Positions 8,821 to 58,496 of a DNA stretch of 64,000 nucleotides are shown piece by piece. Under the pieces are notes generated by a model that was not told the DNA's origin, made no database searches, and was given only the letters and a program-made list of their open reading frames with translations. Source of the stretch: Naegleria gruberi. Its lineage: Eukaryota. Position numbers and translations under genes: made by a program. Position 1 is the first letter of the stretch, and each line of letters starts with the position of its first letter. The stretch lies in the NCBI GenBank assembly GCA_000004985.1, contig GG738899.1; one strand, written 5' to 3'.

Positions 8821-9585
8821 TTACATTCCCACAGCAGGATTTGAAGGATTCACCCTAATTGATTATATCCCTATGTACATGATTAATTTCAATTATTTCA
8901 ATTAGATATTATAAATCATGATGGTTAGACATGCAGGAATGAGTGGAATCAAGTCAAGTAAGACATTCATCCTTCAATTACCAATATTGTCAATTTCACA
9001 CAAGTTGACTTCCAAAAGTCTGCATATGGATCCAAACATGGTTTTTTCAATTATATATGATTATCATTGATATTAACTACAATTTCTAGGAGTTTAATAA
9101 ATTAGTATAGTGTTTCCATAGTATGGCTCAATATCTTGGTCAATTAAGGTAGAATGAGTACATTATACTAAGGATATAATATATTATACTCCCAACACTT
9201 CTACAAGGTAGATATCATCATTATACATCATATATATGAGATTGGTGATGATTCTAATAACATTCATATAATAGTACAATAAATGTTGAAAAGTTAATTT
9301 TAAGACATGTTGTAACTTATTAAATACACCGATTCAACATGATTAATTCATAATATCATATATTCATACATATATCTACAATATATTAAAATTTACATTT
9401 CAACCCAACTTTGAAATTTTAGACCTACTAGGGTAAAAACCTTAATATTTCAGGCAGTGCCTTATTATTTTTGAACGCAATGATATTTTTCAAATTTATT
9501 TGCGAATATAGTCAACTCATATTTATATCTACTACATATATTTAATCCAGACCGGCGATCTCCATATTCATAGAGTAATACCGGG

Positions 9586-9770
9586 AAAACCTAACTTTTA
9601 TTTTATCAGAGTTGATTATCTCTATAACTACTTTGAGATATGACTGCTTCGTTACAATATAAGCTTTTTATTTATATTTGAATGACATATATGAAATTCA
9701 GATACTCAATATTGGCCGTTCGTTAGTCGTCGATGGGTTTTCGTCTAACCCAAACCCAAACCCAAACCCA
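9586..9770. repeat. Junction element copy 2 plus a short interstitial telomere tract (taacccaaacccaaacccaaacccaatc)
   Basis: ttatctctataactactttgag ... aatattggccgttcgttagtcgtcgatgggttttcgtctaacccaaacccaaaccc matches 370-545, including the inverted gggtttt immediately before the cccaaa units. Confidence 0.6.
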
Positions 9771-11850
9771 ATCTTGAATATAGAAAACCACATCCTCAAT
9801 CAACAAAATACATATCAATCGATTGGAAATCATTAGTACATCTCGAAAATATCATTTATTTTATGTTTTGAAATCTCTCCTTTACCTCTTTTGGTCAATT
9901 AAGACAATTAAGGATGAGACTATAGGAAAAGTTACCAATCTCAAAATAAATGATAATATCGTGTTCCGCATCTCAAATAAAGTGGACTTTCTTCAAATTA
10001 TATATTTTCATTTCAATAAATGCATCCGTTAGATAGTACATGGTGATATTTCAATGGAATGGATGGAAATCTGAAGGATATAGAAACAACTCCATTTTCA
10101 CTGAAATTGATTTCATGACATGTAGACACTCTAATTAGTATATGGTATCAATTTTATGAATATTGGTTCAGTAGATGTCGACTTGTCAACTCTATCAATT
10201 TACTATAGACATTTGACATGATGTCATAGATTACACTCCAACTCACTCACTTTACATACAGTCAATCTAGAATTGATACCACATAGAGTATACATAAGTT
10301 AAATACACTGTATATAGTTTGGAAACAATTCGTATTACTTACAATTAGTCAGTCAGTTAATGTTCAATGTCAAAAGTGATTATATCCAAGTGTACACTCT
10401 ATCTCAATGAATGTACATCCTATCATCATGTAACTTTACCAGATACGTTTAATCATACTATTATACATATGGTATCAATTTAAGTCTATTAGAGTTGAAT
10501 TCAGTATGATAATAATAACAATCTGCCAAATTGTCAGATTTCAACATATAGAATATACTCCATCTCATTCATTTTACAAAATATCATACAAGTATCAAAT
10601 ATGAATACACTCTTCTTGGTGAGGAGAACAATCTGTGAGAGTTTCATATTGATGGCTCAATATCTTCAACTCAAGAACATCTAAGGTAATAAATAGGGAA
10701 GAATCTTAATTCCAAAATTAAATTTTACTATCATATCAAAATCATTGAATAATGAATTATTTATACAAGAATAATATATTCAATTGTTATACTCATGTCA
10801 GTAATCAGTGAAGGTGATACTTCTTCAACAGTAGTTTTCACATCTCAATATGTAGACAGTCAATTCCACTGAAACTTGAAATATTACCTATCTAGATGAT
10901 ATCATGATGACTCTCCATTGTAACATGCATGTGAAATTGAATGTTGACAGTTTACATCTTGTTATATTTATAGAGATGGTATCCAACAGAGTCAGTTCAT
11001 AATATTAAATATTGAAACTCATTCTGTATGACATGTTTGATGTATAGAACGGTTTTTTATTGAATATAATCAGTTTGAAATAATTTGATGAAATTGACAC
11101 TGTCTAGTCACCATTACATAACAAATAGACCATAGTTTACATTCCATCTCAGTCATTTCAACGAGTTATTGATTAATTCCACCACCATTATGTTTCTCAT
11201 ACATTGTAGTTCAGTTTGTATTTCAAGAGTGATTTCTGTGTAGATTATTATAATCGTAATACCTTGCAATACCAATAAAACTCAATAGAAGAGTTAATTC
11301 TTCTGATTTTCAAATAGATTATTCAATATAGAACACATCTAGATAGTTTCCATATCATAAAAGTCAAGATACTATATATGGTCTTTGATTAAATTTAAAA
11401 ATAGACTGCCGTTAATTACTGGAATATTAATTCAAAGCTTGTTGATCAAGCTATTGATTGAAATCAAACCGATTATTGAATATTGATCATTGAATTGGTG
11501 AATAATCACTCTTGATAATGTTACTTATTCATATTGCATGCAAATCAACCTGATTCAATCTACAAAGGTTGGTAGTTGCACCACTTCGTGGCGAAACTAC
11601 CATTCCACGATGAATCAACATAAGAATCACTTCCATTCAACTCAATTTGACCGTTATAATCAATAAATCAATGAAATGTTCCTTTATTAGCAATACCTAT
11701 TCAATCTAACGAGTAGATTCACGTCCCAAACATTTGACTTCTCAACGTCCATAATTCAAAAGTTAGTACTGACCTGACCTTTAAATATCTATCAACACAA
11801 GAAATGAAACCATCAAATTTACATCATTAATAGATCATAAGAATTATAAT
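9770..11850. repeat. Subtelomeric segmental repeat R2k, copy A
   Basis: Long collinear identity with 13055-15500. For example, atcttgaatatagaaaaccacatcctcaatcaacaaaatacatatcaatcgattggaaatcattagtacatctcgaaaatatcatttattttatgtt corresponds to 13055ff. Further anchors are at ~11220 (ttcaagagtgatttctgtgtagattattataatcg), ~11560 (gttggtagttgcaccacttcgtggcgaaactacc) and ~11700. Confidence 0.8.
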
Positions 11851-11899
11851 CAATGATATGAATCTTCACTAAGTAATCTCTTAAATAACCCAAATAAAT

Positions 11900-12700
11900 C
11901 AACTCTGAATCCTAACCAAACCCAACCATTAACTTTGTAAATAATGTCAGATTAAAAATTATAAAATGAAACCATAGGAAGAATGATAATTTCAAAATCC
12001 TTTAATGAGATTATATAGTATATATCTTCACTAACAACATTCATAATCACTCTCATATGAAATTTCTAAACTTCATGTCGGTAGGTATAAAAGTATCAAG
12101 TGAAAAGGGAAGATGTGAGGTAAAAGAGGTCAACTATAACTTTTGAGTTTCTCATCAAAACATATTGAATCCTAATATGAAAATGTTCCATTTGATTATT
12201 AAACATCGAATATCAAATTTATTTTAACTTTCATATTTAAAGATTTCTTCCCTCAACCACACATGGTCAACTATGATGAAAAGGTGGAAATCTTGATAAA
12301 GGACCACCTATTGAAACTTTACCAAAATGATTTATATGATCTATAGTGATATAGAATTCAATTTCATATCATAAGAATTAGAAATGGTACCATGGGAATG
12401 TAAATGTTGATTTTACAAAGTTGACTGAAAGGAAAGACAAGTCAGATCAAGTCTATCAAATATATCACTTCAATCAACAAATTACACATGTACATGCTCC
12501 ATTAGATGTGTAGAGATAGAATATCAAGTTTATTTTAACTTTCATAATCAAGATTTCATCCCTTTCATACCATCTAGTCAACTATGGACATGGATGAAAA
12601 TCTGGAAAATGACCTCTCTATGAAACACTTCCATCATGTTTAACAACTCAAATAATGTAATAGAATTCAATTTTAGAGTTTTAAAATGTAATTTGACAAT
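11900..12700. repeat. R750 copy 2, preceded by a degenerate telomere-like remnant (cctaaccaaacccaacca). A relic chromosome-end structure now lying internally
   Basis: Matches 3898-4790, including the degenerate tel-like leader and the aactttgtaaataatgtcagattaaaaatt...gtgaggtaaaagaggtcaactataacttttgag stretch. Confidence 0.75.
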
Positions 12701-13054
12701 ATAGTAAGGTAAAGGTTGATATTTTAAGGTTGACTTTAAGGATTGAAAGGTGAAAATCAAGATATCAAAAACATCACTCCAGTCAATAAAACACATATCA
12801 AAATGTTGCAAACGATGAGTAGTCATCGAAAATATCATTCATTCTAATTGGAAATATCTCTAATATCTAAATGGTGGTAAACTCTCCCTCAAATGAACAA
12901 ATGAATCAGCCAAGTTACCAATCTCAAATTAAATCATATAATCATGTTCCATATCTCGTATAATGTATATAATTCAGTTTTTAGACATTTTGGTAAATAT
13001 TCCATAATTCAGTAAGGTAAAGAGTGATTTATCAAGGTTGACTTGGGAGGATCA

Positions 13055-15500
13055 GGAGGAAATCTTGAATATAGAGAACCAAATCCTCAATCAACAAAAT
13101 ACATATCAATCGATTGGAAATCAATAGTACATCTCGAAAATATCATTTATTTTATGTTTTGAATTATCTCCTTGACCTAATTTGGTCAATTAAGACAATT
13201 AAGGATGATACTATAGGGAAAGTTACCAATCTCAAAATAAATGATACTATCATGTTTAACATCTCAAATAAAGTGGACTTTATTCAAATTATATATTTTC
13301 ATTTCAAGAAATACATCCGGTAGATAGTACATGGTGATATTTCAAGTGAATGGATGGAAATCTGAAAGATACAGAAACAACTCCATTTTCACTGAAATTG
13401 ATATCATGGTATGTAGACACTCTAATTAGCATATTGTATCAATTTTATGAATATTGGTTCAGTAAATGTCGTGTTGTCAACTCTATCACTTTATTATGGA
13501 CTTTTGACATGATATCATAGATTATACTCCAAATCACTCAATTTACATGCAATAAATCTAAAATTGATATCACACAATCTAGACATCATTTAAGTATATA
13601 TAAACAAGTTTAGAAACAATTCATGATACTTTCATTCAACCAATCGGTTCATGTTCAATGTCAACAGTATTTATATCCTAGTGAACTCTCTATCTCAATG
13701 AAAGCAGGTTCAATCATTATATAACTTTACCATATATATTAAATCACTTTATTAATTATATGGTATCATTTACAGTCTGTTAGAATTATATTCAGTATGA
13801 TAATAATATCATTCTTCCAAAAAGTCAGCTTTCATCACAAAGATCACACTCCATCCCATTCATTTTGCAAAATATCATATTAGTGTAAAATATGAATACA
13901 CTCCTCTTTATGTGGATAACAATCTGGAACAGTTTCATATTCATAGATCAATATCTTAAAGTTGCAACCAATCCATATAATAATTGAACACAATATTTTA
14001 ACGTAGATAAAATCGATTTACTTTGAAAAGTAATTTTAAAAATTATACGCCAAAATAGAGCAGCTTTCTTACTGGTCTTTCTTGTAGTGTTGAATTTATT
14101 TGTCCGAAAACCCAAGAATCTAAACCTAAAAACCTAAGCTAATTGAATATTCAATCTCATACCGGAAAAGATTCTTATTTGCGGAAAAAGATTCGAATCT
14201 TAGCGAATCTTCAATCAATTTCGAATGGAAACTGAATCTAATATCGAAATCTTTACCACTTTCCAAATAACAACGCAAACAACAAATACACCAAATCTCG
14301 ATATCTAGATAGAAAGTATATACTTTTTTTAAAACTTTACTGAAAAACCTTTCCAAAAGCCCAAGATTCACTTAAAGACTCTATATTAGATCATAAAGAC
14401 CATGGTGCCACCGAAGTAACAAATCAAAACAACTCTAATCCAAAACCTTATTTCCAAAATTAAATTTTACCATCATATCTAAATCATTGAATAATGAATT
14501 ATTTATACAGGAATCATATGTTTAGTTGTTATATTCATGTCAGTAATCAGTGAAGGTGACACTTCTCAAACCTAAGTATAGTAACATGCATGTGAAAACA
14601 TATATTGACACTTTTCATCTTGTTATATTTATAGAGATGGTATCTTACAGAGTCATCTCACAATATTAAATATTGAAGCTAGTTCTATATGATATATATG
14701 ATGTATAGAACTGTATTTGACGATGTCAATCCAGTATGAAATACTTTAGTGGAACTGACACTGTCTAGTCACAATTACATGACAAAGTAAACAATAGTAT
14801 ACATTCCATCTCAGTCATTTCAACGATTTATTGATTAATTCCACCACCATTATGTTTCTCATACATTGTAGCACAGTTTATATTTCAAGAGTGATTTCTG
14901 TGTAGATTATTATAATCGAAATATCATTCAATACCAATAAAACTCAATAGAAGAGTTAATTCTTCTCATTTTCAAATAGATTATTCAATATAGAACACAT
15001 CTAGATAGTTTCCAGATCACAAAAGTCAAGATGCTATATATGGTCTTTGATTAAATTTAAAAATAGACTGCCGTTGATTACTGGAATATTAATCCATAGC
15101 TTGATGATAAAGCTATTGATTGAAATCAAACCGATTATTGAATATTGATCATTGAATTGGTGAATAATCACTCTTGATAATGTTACTTATTCATATTGCA
15201 TGCAAATCAACATGATTCAATCTACAAAGGTTGGTAGTTGCACCACTTCGTGGCGAAACTACCCATCCACAATCAACATAAGAATCACTTCCATTCAACT
15301 CAATTTGACCGTTATAATCAATAAATCAATGAAATTTTCCTTTAATAGCAATACCAATACAATCCAATAAGTAGATTCACGTCCCAAACATTTGACTTCT
15401 CAAAGTCCATATTTCAAAAGTTGATACTGACCTGACCTTTAAATATCTATCAATACAAGAAATGAAACCATCAAATTTACATCATTAATAGATGATAAGA
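13055..15500. repeat. Subtelomeric segmental repeat R2k, copy B. It contains a ~480-bp insertion (about 13940-14420) absent from copy A; the insertion shares ...atctagatagaaagtatata[gc]tttttttaaaactttactgaaaaacctttccaaaagccc with 765-826
   Basis: Direct comparison with 9770-11850 and with 760-826. Confidence 0.75.
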
Positions 15501-50162: not shown

Positions 50163-52274
50163 ATGATCGTTGGTGGCGCCTTAAAAGGTCTCGGAATGAT
50201 TTTTCCCGCCAATTTGGAGCATATCGTAAATGAGGAGAATGAAGAGGAATTTATTTTGATTCGGAAGGGATTTGATAATAGAAAACAAGTTGCTTTAATT
50301 TCTGGTTAGTAACATATTCATTTGTTGGATTTGGATATATAAATTGGTGATACTATTTAATTTTATTATTTGATGATTTGATGAATTTAATTTGATTTTA
50401 ATATTATTGATGGTGATGAACAAATATGAAAAGGAGGAGGATCTGGACATTCACCATCACATGAAGGATTTGTTGCAAAAGGAATGCTCACAGCTGCTGT
50501 TTTGGGAGCTGTTTTTACTTCTCCGAGTGTTTTGCAAATCTTCAAGGCAATCACTGCTGTTACAAGCAGGAGACGAGTTGATGAAGAAGGAAAGGGATGC
50601 TTGTTGATTGTGAAGAATTATACAGGAGATATATTGAATTTTAGATTGGCTAGAGAAATGGCCATTCAAGATGGATATAATGTGGAGATGATTATTGTGG
50701 GAGATGGTATGTTGTTTGAATATATATGTGAAGATTGTAAAGTTTTTGAATGATTAGATGTTACTCATCAGAGAGGAGTTGCTGGAACTGTTTTTATTCA
50801 TAAATTGTGTGGAGCTATGGCTGAGAGAGGTGATTCATTGAGTGAGATTTTTGAGTTTATGAAATCAAAATTAAAAATCACATCGGAACAAGTATTGAAT
50901 AATGGAAATGAATCATTTATTAGGAGTATTGGAATTGGATTGAATAGTATTTCAATGCCAGGTAATTCGGAACCACTCTATGAATTGAGTGACAGCGATC
51001 CTGTCTATGAGCTCGGCTTGGGAATTCATGGAGAGAAGGGCGTTTGCAGACTTACATTTTCTCCAACTAATCCAGTCACTGAAATTTCCAACACAATGAT
51101 TGAACATTTATTACCAAAGGAATTCAGTGCCGAGAATCTCAAATTTGCTCTCATGATTAATAATTTAGGATCTACCACCTTGTTGGAAATGTACAATATT
51201 GCAAGGGTGGTAATTACCTTATTGGAAAATCAAAACATTTCTATTGAGAGAGTGTATGTTGGAACATTCATGACTGCTCTGAATATGCATGGATTCTCTC
51301 TCAGCTTGCTTAATTTAGCTCAAAACTCTGAACAATTATTAGAACTCTTGGACACTCCAACAGAGTCAATGTTTTGGCCAACTAGTTTGAATCTCTCCAA
51401 AAAATCAAACAATTCTTCGAGAACTAGTCACTCAACTGGAGGTATTAAACTGTCCCCTCAAATAGGAATAACAGCCACAACAAAATCCATCATATCTACT
51501 GAGGAAAATTCACAAGTAGAAAAATTCCTCTCACTCACAGGGGTCGTTTGTGATTTTATCTTGACAAGAATTAAAGAATATAATTCTTTGGACAGTGAAG
51601 TTGGAGATGGGGATTGCGGGAGTGCCATTGAAAGGTATGTACAAAATATCACATTATGTAATTATATAATTTATAACTATTTTATATATTTGGAATATTT
51701 TAGAGCTTGTGAATCAATTCAACAACACATCCTCAAAAAACAAGATTTGAAAATGACACTTGCCGAATTGGTTTATCAAATTGGAATTTGTGTTCAAAAT
51801 AGTGGAGGTAGTTCAGGAGCTATTATTTCCATGTTCTTTTTAAGATATTCCAAATCATTGAAAACGAATTCATTCGATCACAAGAAGGCATTCATTGAGG
51901 GAGTGCACGGAATGATGGAATTGGGTGATTCAAAGAAGGGAGACAGAACAATGCTCGATACTCTCATTCCAGTCAGTGAATATTTACAGGAACAAGAAGA
52001 ATCTATCGATGTGGAAACCATTGTTAAAGTTGCAAATGAAGGAATGGATAGTACAAAATCAATGCTTGCCAAAAGGGGTAGATCTCGTTATCTTGGAGAC
52101 AGAGTTTTAGGATTCTTAGATCCTGGTGCACTTTGCATGTTTGATATTGTCAAAATTTGGTCATTGTGGATGTTAGATAAATCACGGGTGGCTAACTCTA
52201 GCGATTTTTTTCGTGAAGTCTCCGACCCACGAGTTTTTTTTGCCACAGTAAATATTACAAGTTGTACTATTTGA
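50163..52274 (+). CDS. Dihydroxyacetone kinase / triokinase (DhaK + DhaL domains), 4 exons. The last 30 codons and the stop codon are supplied by the inserted transposon
   Basis: Exons: 50163-50304, 50434-50706, 50758-51634, 51704-52274. Introns: gttagt...aag, gtatgt...ttag, gtatgt...ttttag. DhaK motifs: KQVALIS|[32 protein letters not shown]...[37 protein letters not shown]|[25 protein letters not shown]. DhaL motifs: [16 protein letters not shown]|ACES...[12 protein letters not shown]...GDRTMLDTL...[21 protein letters not shown]. The native end ...WMLDK is immediately followed, in the uninterrupted flank, by TGA at 57008. Confidence 0.75.
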
Positions 52275-55200
52275 ACCAATATACAATCAATAAATGTTTT
52301 GAAAATGTAAATAATCATATTTAAAGACTAGACTCTATCGTTTACCTGTTGACGAAAAATCTTGGGGTTTTATCAACCCCTAATAAAGAATTTGATGTGT
52401 GCAACAATCATAAAAATAAATATAACCATAAAAGGTATTGAAAAATGACTAACCGAGCTCAAAATCAAATATAACGAGTTTTATTCGAAATACTAATACA
52501 AAAATTGGTAAGTACCTTTCTTCTTACTTCAATAACGAAATGTAAAATTTTGAATTAAATATCTTGAGAGTTGATGATTTGAGAAGGTTGCGGTTCAATT
52601 TCAATTTCCTCAAATAAGCAATTATTGCACCATCTTTCAAATTTAACACATGAATCACAAATAAGAGATCCACAATCATGACATCTACGTACTGACTGAG
52701 TTCTGAAGTGACATGATTCACAGACAAATTGAGGGAAATGAGTGGAACAATTTTTACAAACTCCTTGAAATTCACATAAATTACAAATCTCCACTCCACA
52801 TTGATTACACTCATCAAGTGATTTTGTGTATCCTAAACAAATGTGGCATGGATAAATTGGATAGAAAAGTTCTGTAAAACAATCTATGCAATATAATTGA
52901 TGCCAACATGAATCACAAAACAACCTGAAACAATCACCACACTTATTAATTCCTCTCTCATGTCTACAATAGTTGCAACCTTGTTGTTCACAAATATCTG
53001 GATCACATTTACAAGTATTTGGAAAGCAATATCGTTCATTCTTCTTACAGGAGCATTTAAGGTTTGAGCAACTGGTTGTACAACGGCATCCTGTTACCTT
53101 AGTAAGCTTGGATTCTGAATTTGATTTCTTTCTTTTTTTCTCAATATTTGAGGTTTTAGAGAATTCTTGAATATTCGAAATGGCTGTGTTAACATCATCA
53201 AAAAATTTGTTTAAAATATTAAATAATCCAATTACATCAAAGAATGCACAATGACAATCCGCAACATTTCCCACTTGGAAATGTTCAATTAACATTTCTT
53301 CTTTGAATGCAGTTCTTCCACTACTCTCTTTTTTTGGTAATTTGTGATGTAGATCTTTGTGGCTTTTCATTAATTTCAAGGAATCTACGAAAACTATATT
53401 TTCAAACTTTGATTCTCTTTTCGGATAAAACTCTTTCTTAAATACTTTGAAATCAAGTATCTCACCATTGTGCGCAATTAAGAAAGTTTTCCCTTTAGTA
53501 TTACTAATAAAATCAATAATAAAATCAAGCTCCTTTTCAATGATTGGTTTGTCTCTTACATAATTCAAATTGATTCCAGTAATCTTTGTTGAATGATATG
53601 AAATTGATTTTGTTGGATTTACTAATCCATAAATTGATTCACCTGTTGCCATATTTAAAAAGCAATATTCTGTTATTTTTGGTGGATCATCATTTGTCCA
53701 AAATCCTGTTGTTTCAAAATCAAACAGAATATATTTGTCATCTCCAAAATCATGTTGAAATGGAAGACCCTTATTGTGTGTGTACAAATCATCATTGAAT
53801 AAAATTCTGGAAGCTCGTGGGATTGGTTCTGAAGGTCTAATTTTTTGATCTACTATTGATTTATCAACAGTATTTGTAATAAGTGTTAATAAATTATCAC
53901 TGTCCAATAGGTTGGAAGAATCTGACTGTTTGATTGATTTCAATAAAGCTTCAATCATTGACTGCTTTCCCTCTGAAAATGAATAATTATGAACGTTCAT
54001 TACATGTTTCAAAAATGATTTCAATCTCACAAAAGGTTGATTACATTCTTTACAAAGAATGTAAATATTATTCATGATGTTTTTTGAGTCAATGTTCGGT
54101 GGATTTTTACACATGAATTCTCGTATGAGCATAGTGTTTCTTTGAGGTTCAAATCCTTCTACAGCATCCAATATATAATCGAACATTTCAGTAAAACTAT
54201 TTTCTTTCTCTAATATTTGATCTTCTTCTTCCTCTGTAAGTTTTTTCTTATTCTTCTTCTTATACTTCTTTCTAGTTAATTCCTCATACTCCAATTCCAA
54301 ATCTATTTTTCCATAACAATTCGAATAACTCTCATTTCTCAAAACAAATGGTCCGTCACTTAGTTTTGCTTTTAACACTAACCAAACAGATCTATAACAG
54401 GAACAATAATCCATAAATGTTGGATATCTAATTTTGGATCTAACAATGCTGAAACAATGTTCTACCATTAATGTAGATAAGCTACAAGTACATAGCTCAA
54501 TTGTTGGAAATCTTGTCTTAAGCTCCTTTAAGGATTTTAATGTAATTATAATATGATCAAATAATTCATTATTTAAAGAAATATCGTTTGATTTTTGCCA
54601 TGGATTAATAAATTGAAAAACAGAGTCTAACAGAATCTCTTTTGCTTCCCAACAATAATCATTTTTGAAAATATAATAAATATCCTGCATTAGTTTTAAA
54701 TATTTAGAGACTGTTTGACAAGTAGTATTTTTTGATTTGGCCAAACCATCAATTAAATTAGTTTCTAATAATGCAAATACGGGATCCATAGCCATTTTGT
54801 CAGTAGGATAAATCACAGAATTAGGTAGCCAATCAGTTAAATTTGATTCAGATTTGGCAATCAATAACGTCTCAATTGAAAATGAAATGCCATCTATAGT
54901 CATGGTTTCATTTAGTAATCTATTTCGTAATCGTTTTAGTAGATGAGAGTAATCAAAGAAGTGAACAGTATTGGGAAATATTTTTTGTGTTTGGAAAAAT
55001 GTTAAATTTCCAGTCAATCCATCGCTACTGAAACCTACAACTTGGAAAGAATAATTATTTAACTGAATTCTTTCAAACTGTTCCTTAATCTTTTTTACTT
55101 GATCTTCCAAAAAATCTGCATGACTTGATTTTGTACAACCTGCAAACATTAAAGGGAAAGAAACACTTCCATCAATTGTAGTAGCAAAGAATTGGCAAAT

Positions 55201-56999
55201 GTGAGAAGCAATTTGGGAAGGTACAATTTCTTCTTTAGATTTGTATAGCTGATCAAAATCTTTTTCATTATAATCTGCAAATCCTATAACTTTTCCAGAA
55301 TCTTTAAGAACACATAACCCTCCTCTTATTTCTATTTCATCATATGAAATTATTATATTATTCGTAACTTTCTTTTTCTGTATAGATTTCAATAAAGATT
55401 GCAAATCTAAATCAGAGGTTTGCCCTGTAGATAATTTGGGAAGATAAGATTTCACTGTTGCTAGAGATGGAAGTAATAAATTCACTTCATCAAGGGCTGT
55501 TTGAGAATTCAAAGCTGAGCCATTTCCTTTCAATATTTTCCATATTTTTGATCCACCAAAATATCTTAAAATTAGACACCAATGAATAATAGATTCCTTA
55601 TACTGATATCCTCTTGACTTATTATAATTAGTGATATTTTCCAAAGTATTTTCCATTAATTGGTAGAAAAATTGTTGTTCATGCAGTTTTTCATCTTCAA
55701 TAGCAGCAATCACCAATTTTACAAGTTTGTGATGATGAATTTTGGATAGTTTTTCCTCTAATGAATCCAATTTTTCTTCCCGTCTTGTTAACATAGATTT
55801 TAATTGAGATACTTTCTTTCTTAATTTCTCTATTTGATCTTTTTGTTTGATTAATTTTTCGTCAGAGTTGTTTGATTTAGTGGTTGTCATATGTCGCAAT
55901 TTTTCATATAATTGATAACAATCTGTGCAAACTCCATTCCGATTTAAATTAATATTTCCACATTTCAATGATTTGAAAATGAAATTTCCATTATCATTAA
56001 ATGATACAATTCCTACTTCATTGTTTCGTTTGTCACAAACTTTTCCATCATAATTTAATAAATTCCATACTTTTTCCACAGCAACTCCTTTACATGTAGT
56101 ATTATTATTTTTACAGTTAGCACATGATCGTGTATCAGCATGTTTACATTTCCCCATGCCTTCTTTAATTTCCGAAAATCCTTTTTCTGAATTATATTCA
56201 ACTTTGATCGTTTCATCATTTGCCAATTTTTCAACAAATCTTATTAGCTTCTGATAATGACTGTGACATAAACGTGACGTTTTTTTGTTGATTATTATAT
56301 TATCAGGAACATTTCTTGTGCCAGGCTGTTTACAACAACAACAACTTGTACGTTGTTTTCTTCATGACATTTTTTTGTTTTTTACTCAAAAAAATGTCAT
56401 GAAGACCCAACACAGCCGGAGTTCTTTACCTAGGATGTTCAAGCCAAGTATTATTCTCAAGAAACTAGAACCAATTCATAAATTAAATATTTAATTAGAT
56501 TACTAGTAATAACCCGCCAGGTTCATACAATGAATAAACATTTAAATTTTTTTATTTTTTAACGGAATTAATTTGCTTTGATGAAAATATAATGGAGACT
56601 GTTGGTATGTTTCATGCAAAGTTCCACGTTGGTCAAATAATTATTAACATCAACAAGTAGTAGAAAACAGTAGGTTTTAAATTATTGGATTAGTTTTTTG
56701 ACCAACGTGGAACTTTACATGAACGAGGGCACACTTTGAAGATTATTTTTCTGTGGCTTTATGTTATTCTTGTAATATATCTACAGACTCGGAAAGTTGC
56801 CAAGCAATAAATAAACAATACTAGTACTCATATGTTCAAAAGAATGACAAAGATCAACTTTAGATGTATTATAAATCGATTTAAAAGTTGAAAATTATTT
56901 ATTGATGAGCAACAACAAATTCCAATTTTATTTAAAAACTCGTGGGACACAAATGCTCGATTGCCTGAGCCAAAAATGACCCATAGTTAGCCACCCGTG
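52183..56999 (-). mobile_element. Intact autonomous DNA transposon (P-element-superfamily-like), 4817 bp. Has a 15-bp perfect terminal inverted repeat, ~70-bp imperfect subterminal IRs, and an 8-bp target-site duplication AGATAAAT
   Basis: Left end 52183 reads CACGGGTGGCTAACTctagcgattttttt...CCCACGAGTTTTTTTT. Right end 56999 is the reverse complement: ...AAAAACTCGTGGGacacaaatgctcg...AGTTAGCCACCCGTG. Flanking direct repeats agataaat sit at 52175-52182 and 57000-57007. The ORF track shows a single ORF on the minus strand, 52555-56226. Confidence 0.8.
52555..56226 (-). CDS. Transposase, 1223 aa, intronless. N-terminal Cys/His zinc-binding region, coiled coil, P-element/THAP9-like transposase core, DEDDh 3'-5' exonuclease domain, and C-terminal CXC (tesmin/TSO1-like) plus B-box-like Cys-rich modules
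   Basis: P/THAP9-like core motifs: IISYDEIEIRGGLCV, VVGFSSDGLTGNLTFF, FFDYSHLLKRLRNRLLN. Exonuclease: Exo I YILFDFETTGF...KITEY, Exo II FLIAHNGEILDFKVF, Exo III YHSTKITGI...HFQVGNVADCHCAFFDV (H-x-A-x-x-D). CXC domain: CRCTTSCSNLKCSCKKNERYCFPNTCKC, followed by multiple CxxC...CxxC units (CHICLGY...CNQCGVEICNLCEF...CKNCSTHF). Confidence 0.65.
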   Translation of the reverse strand: MANDETIKVEYNSEKGFSEIKEGMGKCKHADTRSCANCKNNNTTCKGVAVEKVWNLLNYDGKVCDKRNNEVGIVSFNDNGNFIFKSLKCGNINLNRNGVCTDCYQLYEKLRHMTTTKSNNSDEKLIKQKDQIEKLRKKVSQLKSMLTRREEKLDSLEEKLSKIHHHKLVKLVIAAIEDEKLHEQQFFYQLMENTLENITNYNKSRGYQYKESIIHWCLILRYFGGSKIWKILKGNGSALNSQTALDEVNLLLPSLATVKSYLPKLSTGQTSDLDLQSLLKSIQKKKVTNNIIISYDEIEIRGGLCVLKDSGKVIGFADYNEKDFDQLYKSKEEIVPSQIASHICQFFATTIDGSVSFPLMFAGCTKSSHADFLEDQVKKIKEQFERIQLNNYSFQVVGFSSDGLTGNLTFFQTQKIFPNTVHFFDYSHLLKRLRNRLLNETMTIDGISFSIETLLIAKSESNLTDWLPNSVIYPTDKMAMDPVFALLETNLIDGLAKSKNTTCQTVSKYLKLMQDIYYIFKNDYCWEAKEILLDSVFQFINPWQKSNDISLNNELFDHIIITLKSLKELKTRFPTIELCTCSLSTLMVEHCFSIVRSKIRYPTFMDYCSCYRSVWLVLKAKLSDGPFVLRNESYSNCYGKIDLELEYEELTRKKYKKKNKKKLTEEEEDQILEKENSFTEMFDYILDAVEGFEPQRNTMLIREFMCKNPPNIDSKNIMNNIYILCKECNQPFVRLKSFLKHVMNVHNYSFSEGKQSMIEALLKSIKQSDSSNLLDSDNLLTLITNTVDKSIVDQKIRPSEPIPRASRILFNDDLYTHNKGLPFQHDFGDDKYILFDFETTGFWTNDDPPKITEYCFLNMATGESIYGLVNPTKSISYHSTKITGINLNYVRDKPIIEKELDFIIDFISNTKGKTFLIAHNGEILDFKVFKKEFYPKRESKFENIVFVDSLKLMKSHKDLHHKLPKKESSGRTAFKEEMLIEHFQVGNVADCHCAFFDVIGLFNILNKFFDDVNTAISNIQEFSKTSNIEKKRKKSNSESKLTKVTGCRCTTSCSNLKCSCKKNERYCFPNTCKCDPDICEQQGCNYCRHERGINKCGDCFRLFCDSCWHQLYCIDCFTELFYPIYPCHICLGYTKSLDECNQCGVEICNLCEFQGVCKNCSTHFPQFVCESCHFRTQSVRRCHDCGSLICDSCVKFERWCNNCLFEEIEIEPQPSQIINSQDI

Positions 57000-57194
57000 A
57001 GATAAATGATTGAGTTTTGTGAAACAGCTCATCAACGGAAATTGGTTGTATCCAATTAATTTTCAAAAAAGAAATCCATTATCTTACTGTAATCAATTAT
57101 TACAATCTAAAATTGATTACAAGTAGCATCTGATACCAACACCATTATAACCAAACTGTTGAAACTTGACGAAACTTTTTCATCTTTAAAAAAA

Positions 57195-58496
57195 ATGAAA
57201 AGATTCATTGGTGGTTTATTTCTCGTACTAATCTTTGCCACTGTTGCCATGTGTGCCAGCAGTGATGCATTCGACACCTTGAGTGATTACATCTCTCTCG
57301 CAGACTCCCTCAGAGGAGGTGGTTCTTCAGGAGGTGGAGGTGGCAGAGGAGGTGGATCCGGTGGTGGTGGCAGAGGAGGAGGTAGCTCTGGAAGTAGAGG
57401 AGGATCCAGCAGAGGAGGAAGTAGCTCTGGAAGATCAAGCACTGGAGGTAGATCAAGTACTGGTGGTAGATCAAGAAGTACTGGAGGAAGAGTTTCTGGA
57501 CCTGGTCGTTCACCAACTGGACCTTCTAGATCAATTGGTGCAACTAAAGGTGGAAGAGTTGGAGGAAGAGTTGGTGGAAGAGTTTCTGGACCAGGTAGAT
57601 CACCAACTGGACCTGCCAGATCAAGAGTTGGAAGAGTTTCTGGACCAGGACGTGCTCCAACATCTGTTTCCATTCAAAGAAATGCCATTCAAAGTAGAAT
57701 TAATGCTGCATTTGCTGGATTGAGTAAGGTTTCTACCAATCCTGCCTTGTCAGCTGCTCTTTCTAGATATGCCTCAATGAAAGCTGCTTCCTTGAAAGCT
57801 CCTTCAGTAACTAGTGCATTATTCTCCAAGACTCCATTGGGTCCAGTGAGTACTTTCTCAAAGGTCAACCCATCCTTGCCAACCAACAAGTTCACTAAAC
57901 CTGCAACTGTTGCCAATGTTCCTATTCCACAACCTCGTCCTGCCAATTTGGCCAAACCAGCAACTCAAACTGTTGCTGCTACTACCAGTGTCAAGAATCC
58001 AATTAATCCTGCTGGTGTCCAAAGAGTTGCTCGTAGTAAGCAACTTACTGGACCACAAGTAGCTCAAAAAGCAATTAAGGAATTAGCTGCTGCTGGTGTT
58101 ACTTTATCAGCCGATCCAAAACAAAGAATTGCTCAAATTGCTGACCAAATGGCCAACCCAGGATCATTACACAAATGTGCTGGTTATGTTGCTGCTGCTG
58201 TTGAAGCTGCTACAGGAGTCTCTCTCAGCAGACCTGCCTCAGCTGAAGCTAAGGATTACGGAACTACCATGGCCAAGGCTGGAATGAAGTCAATTCCAAA
58301 TAATAGCACTCCACAAATTGGTGATGTCAGAGTGATTGGACCATCTCCAACCAATGCCAAGTACAGTATTGGTCATATGGAGACCTATACTGGACCAAAG
58401 AGTGGATGGGTTTCTGATTATGCTCAAGGAGTATCTGCTGTTGATAATCCAAAGAGTGCTTATCATGGAGCTTCTGTTTCTACCTATCGTTTCTAA
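57195..58496 (+). CDS. Secreted protein: signal peptide, Gly/Ser/Arg-rich repetitive linker, and a C-terminal CHAP-like (Cys/His amidase-peptidase, NlpC/P60-type) domain
   Basis: Signal peptide MKRFIGGLFLVLIFATVAMCASS. Low-complexity GGGSSGGGGGRGGGSGGGGRGGG...GRVSGPGRSPTGPSRS repeats, with an ~100-bp tandem DNA duplication at ~57480-57660. C-terminal domain HKCAGYVAAAVEAATGVSL...AKDYGTTMAKAGMKSIPNNSTPQIGDVRVIG...YSIGHMETYTG has Cys...His spacing and surrounding hydrophobics consistent with the CHAP fold. Confidence 0.45.
   Translation: MKRFIGGLFLVLIFATVAMCASSDAFDTLSDYISLADSLRGGGSSGGGGGRGGGSGGGGRGGGSSGSRGGSSRGGSSSGRSSTGGRSSTGGRSRSTGGRVSGPGRSPTGPSRSIGATKGGRVGGRVGGRVSGPGRSPTGPARSRVGRVSGPGRAPTSVSIQRNAIQSRINAAFAGLSKVSTNPALSAALSRYASMKAASLKAPSVTSALFSKTPLGPVSTFSKVNPSLPTNKFTKPATVANVPIPQPRPANLAKPATQTVAATTSVKNPINPAGVQRVARSKQLTGPQVAQKAIKELAAAGVTLSADPKQRIAQIADQMANPGSLHKCAGYVAAAVEAATGVSLSRPASAEAKDYGTTMAKAGMKSIPNNSTPQIGDVRVIGPSPTNAKYSIGHMETYTGPKSGWVSDYAQGVSAVDNPKSAYHGASVSTYRF

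Follow-up and report, generated by a model that had tools for sequence, protein, structure and literature searches.

A P-type DNA transposon of Naegleria gruberi whose transposase carries a predicted DEDDh exonuclease

Contig GG738899.1 of Naegleria gruberi (assembly GCA_000004985.1) contains a 4.8-kb block whose one long reading frame joins transposase-like and exonuclease-like motifs, and it raises the question of whether this block is a genuine mobile element, to which superfamily it belongs, and what an exonuclease might be doing behind a transposase. The block lies within the 64,000-nucleotide stretch analysed here (the window). An earlier note, made from the letters alone, had described it as a freshly inserted, autonomous DNA transposon encoding a transposase–exonuclease–CXC fusion protein. 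The block is a genuine mobile element of N. gruberi: positions 52183–56999 of the window form a cut-and-paste DNA transposon with its structure intact. We consider it probable that the element comes from a deep lineage of the P superfamily that bears an exonuclease, that it encodes a multi-domain protein, and that DNA 3' ends are the target of the tethered exonuclease.

The boundaries were established from the ends and the target site. The element is 4817 bp long, with 30% GC inside a window of 31% GC, and is flanked at 52175–52182 and 57000–57007 by a perfect 8-bp target-site duplication (TSD), AGATAAAT, the trace of integration with an 8-bp stagger. A 15-bp terminal inverted repeat (TIR), CACGGGTGGCTAACT, occupies 52183–52197 (plus strand), at the end that lies downstream of the transposase gene; at the upstream end, 56985–56999 (minus strand), it recurs as an exact reverse complement, and the inverted match extends, imperfectly, to ~28 nt. 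When the 15-mer was searched for with up to three mismatches allowed, these two matches and none beyond them were found in the window, where 0.26 would be expected. Just inside the ends, the subterminal 13-mer CCCACGAGTTTTT, a candidate transposase binding site, has only two sites in the window (0.03 expected), in inverted orientation at 52226–52238 (plus strand) and 56934–56946 (minus strand), 43 and 53 nt inward from the two element ends. The TIRs, the subterminal repeats and the direct repeat could all be read as the earlier note had read them. A chance inverted repeat is ruled out by these match statistics and by conservation of the ends across species. A Transib/RAG-like identity, prompted by the CACGGGTG terminus, was also rejected, the TSD being 8 bp and not 5 bp, and no similarity to RAG1 or Transib appearing among the PDB sequence matches or the fold matches listed.

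The insertion point could be placed to the codon. The plus-strand open reading frame (ORF) immediately upstream, 50805–52274, is a dihydroxyacetone kinase (Pfam Dak1, 1e-36; Dak2, 8e-31), and the left TSD copy lies at its last codons. When the element and one TSD copy were taken out in silico, ...GAT AAA TGA was restored at the 3' end of the gene (...GTTAGATAAATGATTGAG...), the right TSD copy together with the next bases, GA, corresponding to the original stop. The element therefore landed exactly on the stop codon of the Dak1/Dak2 gene, whose present reading frame extends 30 codons into the transposon.

Relatives were found in two other Naegleria species. The first, from N. lovaniensis (L001), encodes a protein 45% identical to that of N. 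gruberi within an element of 4620 bp (9087–13706) that has near-identical termini (CACGGGTGGCCAACT / CACGGGTGGACAACT) and a perfect 8-bp TSD, GATTTTAT. At the gene-downstream end, 35 nt are conserved between the two (N. gruberi 52183–52217, element positions 1–35, against L001 13706–13672; 86% identity by blastn). The N. lovaniensis ORF retains the transposase, the exonuclease and the cysteine tail, and is frameshifted past the N-terminal region. The N. fowleri copy (L002) sits at an unrelated locus, is 97.8% identical in DNA to that of N. lovaniensis (L001 9915–13682 against L002 10329–14087), and has suffered internal deletions and loss of its 5' end; synonymous divergence between the two is 0.035 and dN/dS is 0.25, from small counts. 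A 5.2-kb retroelement (RVT_1, RNase_H; L002 14100–19313) splits the N. fowleri copy just ahead of its TIR. The 3'-end flanks of the two copies are identical at 12 of 17 nt, which may reflect an AT-rich target preference.

A second, more distant family was found in N. lovaniensis (L003–L008). It encodes a 1010-aa protein with the exonuclease and is present in six copies of 3411 bp that are 99.9–100% identical (3882–7292 in L003), with termini CAGGGAGGGTGAGCC and a perfect 144-bp subterminal inverted repeat. Five of the six copies have perfect 8-bp TSDs; the flanks of the L006 copy differ (ACAAAGTG / GTTACACG), as expected from recombination between copies. The near-identity of multiple copies with 8-bp TSDs indicates that this family moved very recently and points to a currently active element. 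The relatives are mobile, since they occupy non-orthologous sites and include near-identical multi-copy families with 8-bp duplications, and the TIR/TSD structure recurs in these other copies.

The transposase is encoded by a single uninterrupted minus-strand ORF, 52555–56226. Its length had been given as 1223 aa, which counts from a TTG; the first ATG (56157) gives a gene of 1200 aa plus stop (52555–56157), whose product is identical to the NCBI 'predicted protein' P0001 of N. gruberi, and residues are numbered accordingly below. Its aa 254–389 match the Pfam family TNP-like_RNaseH_N (PF21787, the P-element/THAP9 family) at E = 1.5e-5, with 25.8 bits against a gathering threshold of 24.6. For comparison, 22 full-length relatives with ~22% identity to the N. 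gruberi query were aligned, 15 of which are matched by PF21787. In this alignment D273 (55339–55341) is near-invariant, and D379 (55021–55023), D402-x2-H405 (54943–54954), R411-N412 and E566 (54460–54462; consensus VENFFSxIR) are invariant. These residues make up a D-D-E triad with the C/DxxH motif, a pattern common to the P, hAT, Kolobok and MuDR superfamilies, within an RNase H-like core with an inserted domain (54358–55374, minus strand). The insertion is helical, comprises ~185 aa between D379 and E566, and gives no TNP-like GTP-binding-domain match in Pfam.

Profile and structure comparisons both led to the P element. The profile of the 22 relatives matched the Drosophila P element transposase (6p5a) at E = 1.4e-15 among PDB sequences. 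An AlphaFold2 model built on the same alignment had a predicted local distance difference test (pLDDT) score of 80–94 in the catalytic core, and its best Foldseek matches in the PDB were the P element strand-transfer complexes 6pe2 and 6p5a (E = 2e-15; target-normalised template-modelling (TM) score 0.64–0.67 over ~500 columns; 15–16% identity in the structural alignment). Homology of the core to P/THAP9, as the earlier note had supposed from motifs, is borne out by all three lines.

Membership of the Kolobok or hAT superfamilies rather than P was also considered, and we regard it as very improbable. KolobokD, a Kolobok lineage of molluscs, arthropods and cnidarians, already has a DEDDh exonuclease, and Kolobok elements are present in Naegleria (Kojima and Bao, 2022; PMC9587614); 8-bp TSDs are made by hAT elements too, and the second N. 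lovaniensis family begins CAGGG, compatible with the hAT terminus YARNG. Kolobok is, however, defined by TTAA duplications and 5'-RR termini (PMC9587614), whereas seven insertions from three families in this clade all have 8-bp duplications, none of them TTAA, and the clade termini begin CA or TA. Almost all Kolobok lineages have a zinc finger between D2 and E (PMC9587614), but the 22-relative alignment holds no conserved Cys/His columns between D379 and E566 besides DxxH. No hAT or BED family was found in Pfam, and neither Hermes nor any other hAT structure appeared in the PDB sequence matches or among the 50 Foldseek matches listed; in both, the only transposase was that of the P element. 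Against the criteria of the P superfamily, transposase homology, an 8-bp TSD (class range 7–9 bp, most often 8 bp) and the organisation of TIRs with subterminal repeats were all found, and the THAP domain was not.

Downstream of the P-type core, 53158–53745 (minus strand) encodes a DEDDh (DnaQ-H) 3'-5' exonuclease domain. When aa 805–1000 were scanned alone, Pfam RNase_T (PF00929) was matched with E = 2.3e-7 and a score of 32 bits (gathering threshold 24), and the same family matches 19 of the 22 relatives. All five catalytic residues are in place, namely D813 (53719–53721), E815 (53713–53715), D902 (53452–53454), H969 (53251–53253) and D974 (53236–53238), and the DxE, HN-x-fD and H-x-A-x2-D positions are each at least 90% conserved across 40 related exonuclease domains. 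A full DEDDh domain had been proposed from the motifs DFETTG, AHNGxxxD and HxAxxD, all of which were found, as were the transposase motifs SYDEIEI, FSSDG and D-x-SHLLKRLRN. Searched against the PDB, the family profile matched a PolC-type exonuclease (2p1j, 1e-31), DnaQ epsilon (1e-21), TREX2 (2e-16), TREX1 and Cas2-DEDDh (8fy9, 5e-14), with RNase T and ERI1 much weaker (~1e-8); the N. gruberi domain alone gave the same ranking (9l8a, 1.4e-9; 2p1j, 4.5e-6). By fold, the best matches of the AlphaFold2 model in this region were TREX1 and TREX2 (TM 0.65–0.72), with TREX1 first. The domain is accordingly predicted to be a DnaQ/PolC/TREX-like DEDDh exonuclease.

Such a domain might instead serve counter-defence or regulation, either by degrading, in the manner of ERI-1, host small RNAs aimed at the element or by removing excised or abortive DNA as TREX1 does. 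In one relative, P0015, a SAP domain sits directly ahead of the exonuclease, the two domains being ordered as in ERI-1; ERI1 structures are matched by the family profile; TREX1 is the best fold match; and the KolobokD exonucleases were likened to TREX and ERI1 by their describers (PMC9587614). We nevertheless think this role unlikely. Replicative and repair DNA exonucleases are matched far better than ERI1 or RNase T, SAP domains bind DNA as well, and the covalent fusion behind the transposase, present in nearly all assessable members of the clade (see below), fits action within the transpososome better than a diffusible function.

The breadth of the fusion was assessed by searching 1.84 billion representative proteins exhaustively with HMMER, and taxonomy was taken from that search and from cluster look-ups. 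Relatives numbered 875 at E ≤ 1e-3 and 192 at E ≤ 1e-10. The members with a named host belong to Naegleria (Heterolobosea), to Soliformovum, Protostelium and Dictyostelium cf. discoideum (Amoebozoa) and to Pompholyxophrys (Rotosphaerida), and many more lie on 2–18-kb metagenome contigs, some annotated as 'DNA polymerase III epsilon subunit-like'. A protein was considered assessable when its transposase match ran through to the domain end and was followed by 150 residues or more; counted among the proteins returned, 29 of 32 such proteins have the exonuclease. When the alignment of 22 sequences was used in a word-indexed search, the only additions were Naegleria fragments, a single JGI protein, bacterial PolC and a single beetle protein. 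In Soliformovum irregulare, a protein of 1812–2481 aa (P0008 / P0153) has two exonuclease domains.

Element ends were also sought in the wider clade. An environmental family (L129–L134; ~50% GC, 22% protein identity) has the termini TACGGGGTGCTGACT...AGTCAGACACCCGTA, and the tip sequence seems to be conserved across the clade, because TACGGGGTGCTGACT in this distant family is nearly the same as CACGGGTGGCTAACT. One cross-contig flank pair (GCAGTTTT) supports an 8-bp TSD here, the metagenome assemblies being chimeric at the element ends. In L129, the element adjoins a chromodomain Gypsy-type retrotransposon. A TIR scan of metagenomes with CACGGGTGGNNAACTC gave 120 single chance matches, none on a contig encoding the protein; the median GC of these contigs is 0.60, and they are therefore probably bacterial for the most part. 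For the Dictyostelium cf. discoideum member, ends were not definable, other repeats filling the locus.

That an exonuclease had not been described in this transposase family, as the earlier note stated, appears to hold for the P superfamily: a full-text literature search, with Repbase outside its scope, found no report of an exonuclease for P-superfamily elements, nor any report of this Naegleria element, and the exonuclease-bearing P-type clade is apparently undescribed. For the related Kolobok superfamily it does not hold, and the claim of novelty needs tempering on account of the KolobokD precedent (PMC9587614).

The remaining parts of the protein complete its order, which is a Cys-rich N-terminus, a coiled coil, helical/helix-turn-helix-like segments, the P-type DDE core, a C2H2 finger, the DEDDh domain and then, in the Naegleria branch only, a CXC/B-box-like tail. 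The N-terminal cysteine-rich region (aa 1–95; 55873–56157, minus strand) is a presumed DNA-binding domain whose cysteine pattern is conserved with N. lovaniensis; it forms small beta elements in the model (pLDDT 65–78). A long helix (aa 78–141; 55735–55926, minus strand) lies at the position of the P-element leucine zipper, and its Pfam matches, although weak, are all of coiled-coil type. Between transposase and exonuclease, the C2H2 zinc finger (C702, C705, H718, H723; 53989–54054, minus strand) has ligands invariant in the 22 relatives and a weak Pfam zf-C2H2 match. The cysteine-rich C-terminal tail (52588–53091, minus strand) consists of a CXC-like module (52984–53091) followed by B-box-like C/H repeats. 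The pattern reported for it earlier was recovered, with sub-threshold profile support: preSET_CXC at E = 6e-4 (20.6 bits, threshold 23.3) and an ANCHR-like B-box at E = 0.006 (17.1 bits, threshold 27) in N. gruberi, and Tesmin TCR at 14.6 bits (threshold 23.5) in the corresponding N. lovaniensis segment. The tail is not modelled by AlphaFold2 (pLDDT <35) and is kept in the N. lovaniensis element and one environmental fragment (P0065), not in the wider clade, and 'CXC plus B-box-like' is a reasonable description at the level of pattern only.

Taken together with what is known of the P element, these parts suggest how the protein might work. The transposase would bind the 15-bp termini and the CACG-containing subterminal repeats through its N-terminal zinc region, would oligomerise via the coiled coil at aa 78–141, and would carry out P-like excision followed by integration with an 8-bp stagger. 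Work by Beall and Rio in 1997 reportedly showed that Drosophila P transposase cleaves with a 17-nt stagger, so that both the element and the donor flanks end in 3' overhangs. The tethered exonuclease may act on the 3' ends produced by such staggered cleavage; by trimming the overhangs of the donor flanks, or 3' flaps, it would allow repair of both the broken donor and the gapped insertion. Given the 3' overhangs left by P transposase, trimming of this kind appears the most economical role for the exonuclease, and we put its chance of being the actual one at not far short of even.

The N. gruberi copy itself poses a separate problem at its 5' end. From the TTG, the frame remains open for 45 further codons upstream, until a TGA one codon after an in-frame ATG. 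Their translation, RKQRTSCCCCKQPG...RLCHSH, aligns with the N. lovaniensis N-terminus MGRPNRCCCC...LCNTH, and the in-frame extension (56158–56370, minus strand) contains the conserved C-x2-C...C-x2-H motif (RKQRTSCCCCKQPGTRNVPDNIIINKKTSRLCHSH...). At its 5' end stands ATG TCA TGA (ATG at 56368–56370, TGA at 56362–56364), a stop at codon 3; an alternative ATG nearby, next to an A-run, is shifted out of frame by one base. The in-frame ATG-TCA-TGA lies within a perfect 19-bp hairpin, TCTTCATGACATTTTTTTG / CAAAAAAATGTCATGAAGA (56359–56405), whose loop is 9 nt, and in the N. lovaniensis element a shorter palindrome, TTTTTGA..TCAAAAA, directly precedes the ATG. A spliced 5' exon bypassing the TGA was considered and rejected: a GT...AG pair (AG|GTAAAG ... 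GAAG|) joins in frame, but the upstream exon is without an ATG.

The ATG-TCA-TGA is a probable N-terminal lesion of this copy, although a fresh lesion leaving protein from M24 only, an assembly error and unconventional initiation are all possibilities. With a stop at codon 3, the N. gruberi copy, structurally intact as it is, probably cannot make full-length protein. The term 'autonomous' is not sustained, since this stop lies upstream of the conserved zinc motif and no usable in-frame ATG precedes that motif. There is thus a serious possibility, if somewhat under an even chance, that the copy is recently inactivated or non-autonomous, or yields an N-terminally truncated product only, and is no autonomous active transposon. 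The 45 codons of conserved motif lacking a start codon and the out-of-frame alternative ATG fit this, as does the NCBI gene model, which begins at M24; a single N. gruberi protein of the family was found in a collection of 5.8 billion proteins; and the relatives are damaged as well, by a frameshift in N. lovaniensis and by deletions and a retroelement insertion in N. fowleri. On the other hand, the TIRs, TSD and 1200-codon ORF are perfect and both catalytic centres intact, protein from M24 would still retain most of the cysteine-rich region, and sequencing error, stop-codon read-through or non-AUG initiation may be involved. The perfect TIRs and TSD and the intact 3.6-kb reading frame in DNA of 31% GC would fit a fresh insertion, but one copy gives no date.

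Several points weigh against the account of a P-type transposon with an end-processing exonuclease. In Pfam, the THAP, P-element GTP-binding-domain and P-element C-terminal families went undetected in the N. gruberi protein and the 22 relatives, THAP likewise going undetected in the N. lovaniensis N-terminus; the N-terminal motif is C-x2-C-x21-24-C-x2-H, with a spacer below the 35–50 residues of THAP. These absences, with the 15–16% structural identity, place the lineage far from canonical P and THAP9, and the clade is best classified from its sequences as a distant branch of the P superfamily, not near kin of either. The clade search profile included the exonuclease, so its ranking is biased to two-domain proteins; scored for the transposase part by itself, however, all 32 assessable proteins remain strong matches. 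N. gruberi itself yielded only one copy, which carries the N-terminal stop. The proposed exonuclease substrate is an extrapolation from the cleavage stagger of Drosophila P, and a 3'-5' exonuclease could equally destroy the reactive 3'-OH of the transposon, so that its action would need restraint. The most far-reaching version, in which an ancient, formally undescribed P lineage uses a DnaQ-type exonuclease as an obligatory, transpososome-tethered end-processing enzyme and the 100%-identical N. lovaniensis copies are currently active, is offered tentatively and is rather doubtful as a whole.

Other features of the locus were also noted. The 5' non-coding part of the element contains a 33-nt inverted repeat, 91% complementary with a 47-nt loop (56611–56723), for which no flanking duplication was found; this repeat could be an additional site for transposase binding, or a miniature element nested within the larger one. 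Its CCACGTTGG / CCAACGTGG resemble the CACG cores of the TIR and subterminal repeats. Just downstream of the element, a 445-aa ORF (57159–58496, plus strand) with a long, repetitive, Gly/Ser/Arg-rich N-terminal half has no Pfam match. Overlapping ORFs at 57283–57723 (plus strand) and 57287–57673 (minus strand) are open frames through the same repeat region, and the long overlapping frames there are probably artefacts of composition. Further uninterrupted ORFs of 1046, 952, 808, 794 and 769 aa occur in the window, and the transposase gene is therefore not its only large intronless gene, contrary to what had been stated.

With 29 of the 32 assessable proteins carrying it, the fusion is the rule in a large protist clade and not a one-off, and the theme of transposases carrying their own accessory nuclease now reaches from Kolobok to the P superfamily. 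It poses a testable question, namely whether donor repair or integration calls for a dedicated 3'-5' exonuclease when a cut-and-paste transposase leaves long 3' overhangs; if the end-processing role is correct, the transposase would supply its own repair nuclease for its 3'-overhang breaks. In the annotation of protist genomes and metagenomes, the clade proteins labelled 'Exonuclease domain-containing' or 'DNA polymerase III epsilon subunit-like' are transposases. To our knowledge, genetic tools for Naegleria are still limited. N. lovaniensis is not pathogenic and is the sister species of the brain-eating N. fowleri; its near-identical family could become such a tool and, if active as proposed, would be usable as the first transposon tool for the genus.

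Compared with known systems, the element resembles Drosophila P and human THAP9 in sequence, profile and fold matches, in its DxxH motif, its VENFFSxIR-type motif around the catalytic E and its upstream coiled coil, and in having 8-bp TSDs, short TIRs starting CA and subterminal inverted repeats. It differs in lacking a recognisable THAP domain, in whose place stands the C-x2-C...C-x2-H motif with a short spacer and further cysteines, and in possessing a C2H2 finger, a C-terminal DEDDh exonuclease and, in Naegleria, the CXC/B-box-like tail, all three of which are absent from canonical P and THAP9.

The closest parallel in composition is KolobokD, whose superfamily is related to P, hAT and MuDR. 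It too is a cut-and-paste transposon of eukaryotes with a DDE transposase, and its DEDDh (DnaQ) exonuclease was proposed by its describers to degrade transposition DNA intermediates from the 3' end (PMC9587614). The present clade departs from Kolobok in its 8-bp non-TTAA duplications and CA or TA termini, and from KolobokD in its hosts, which are Heterolobosea, Amoebozoa, Rotosphaerida and environmental eukaryotes; the describers of KolobokD compared its nuclease with Exuperantia, TREX and ERI1, whereas the exonuclease of this clade is matched best in sequence by PolC and DnaQ. Compared by description only, the two fusions are probably independent acquisitions. In CRISPR adaptation, Cas2-DEDDh (PDB 8fy9) likewise couples a DnaQ-type DEDDh exonuclease to a DNA integrase, there trimming 3' overhangs of the DNA to be integrated; that system is prokaryotic and its integrase is of Cas1 type, not DDE, so the analogy is one of logic and implies no shared descent of the fusion. 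TREX1, TREX2, DnaQ and PolC share the DEDDh fold and catalytic residues, but they are free-standing or polymerase-associated host enzymes, whereas here the exonuclease is a C-terminal module of a transposase in a mobile element.

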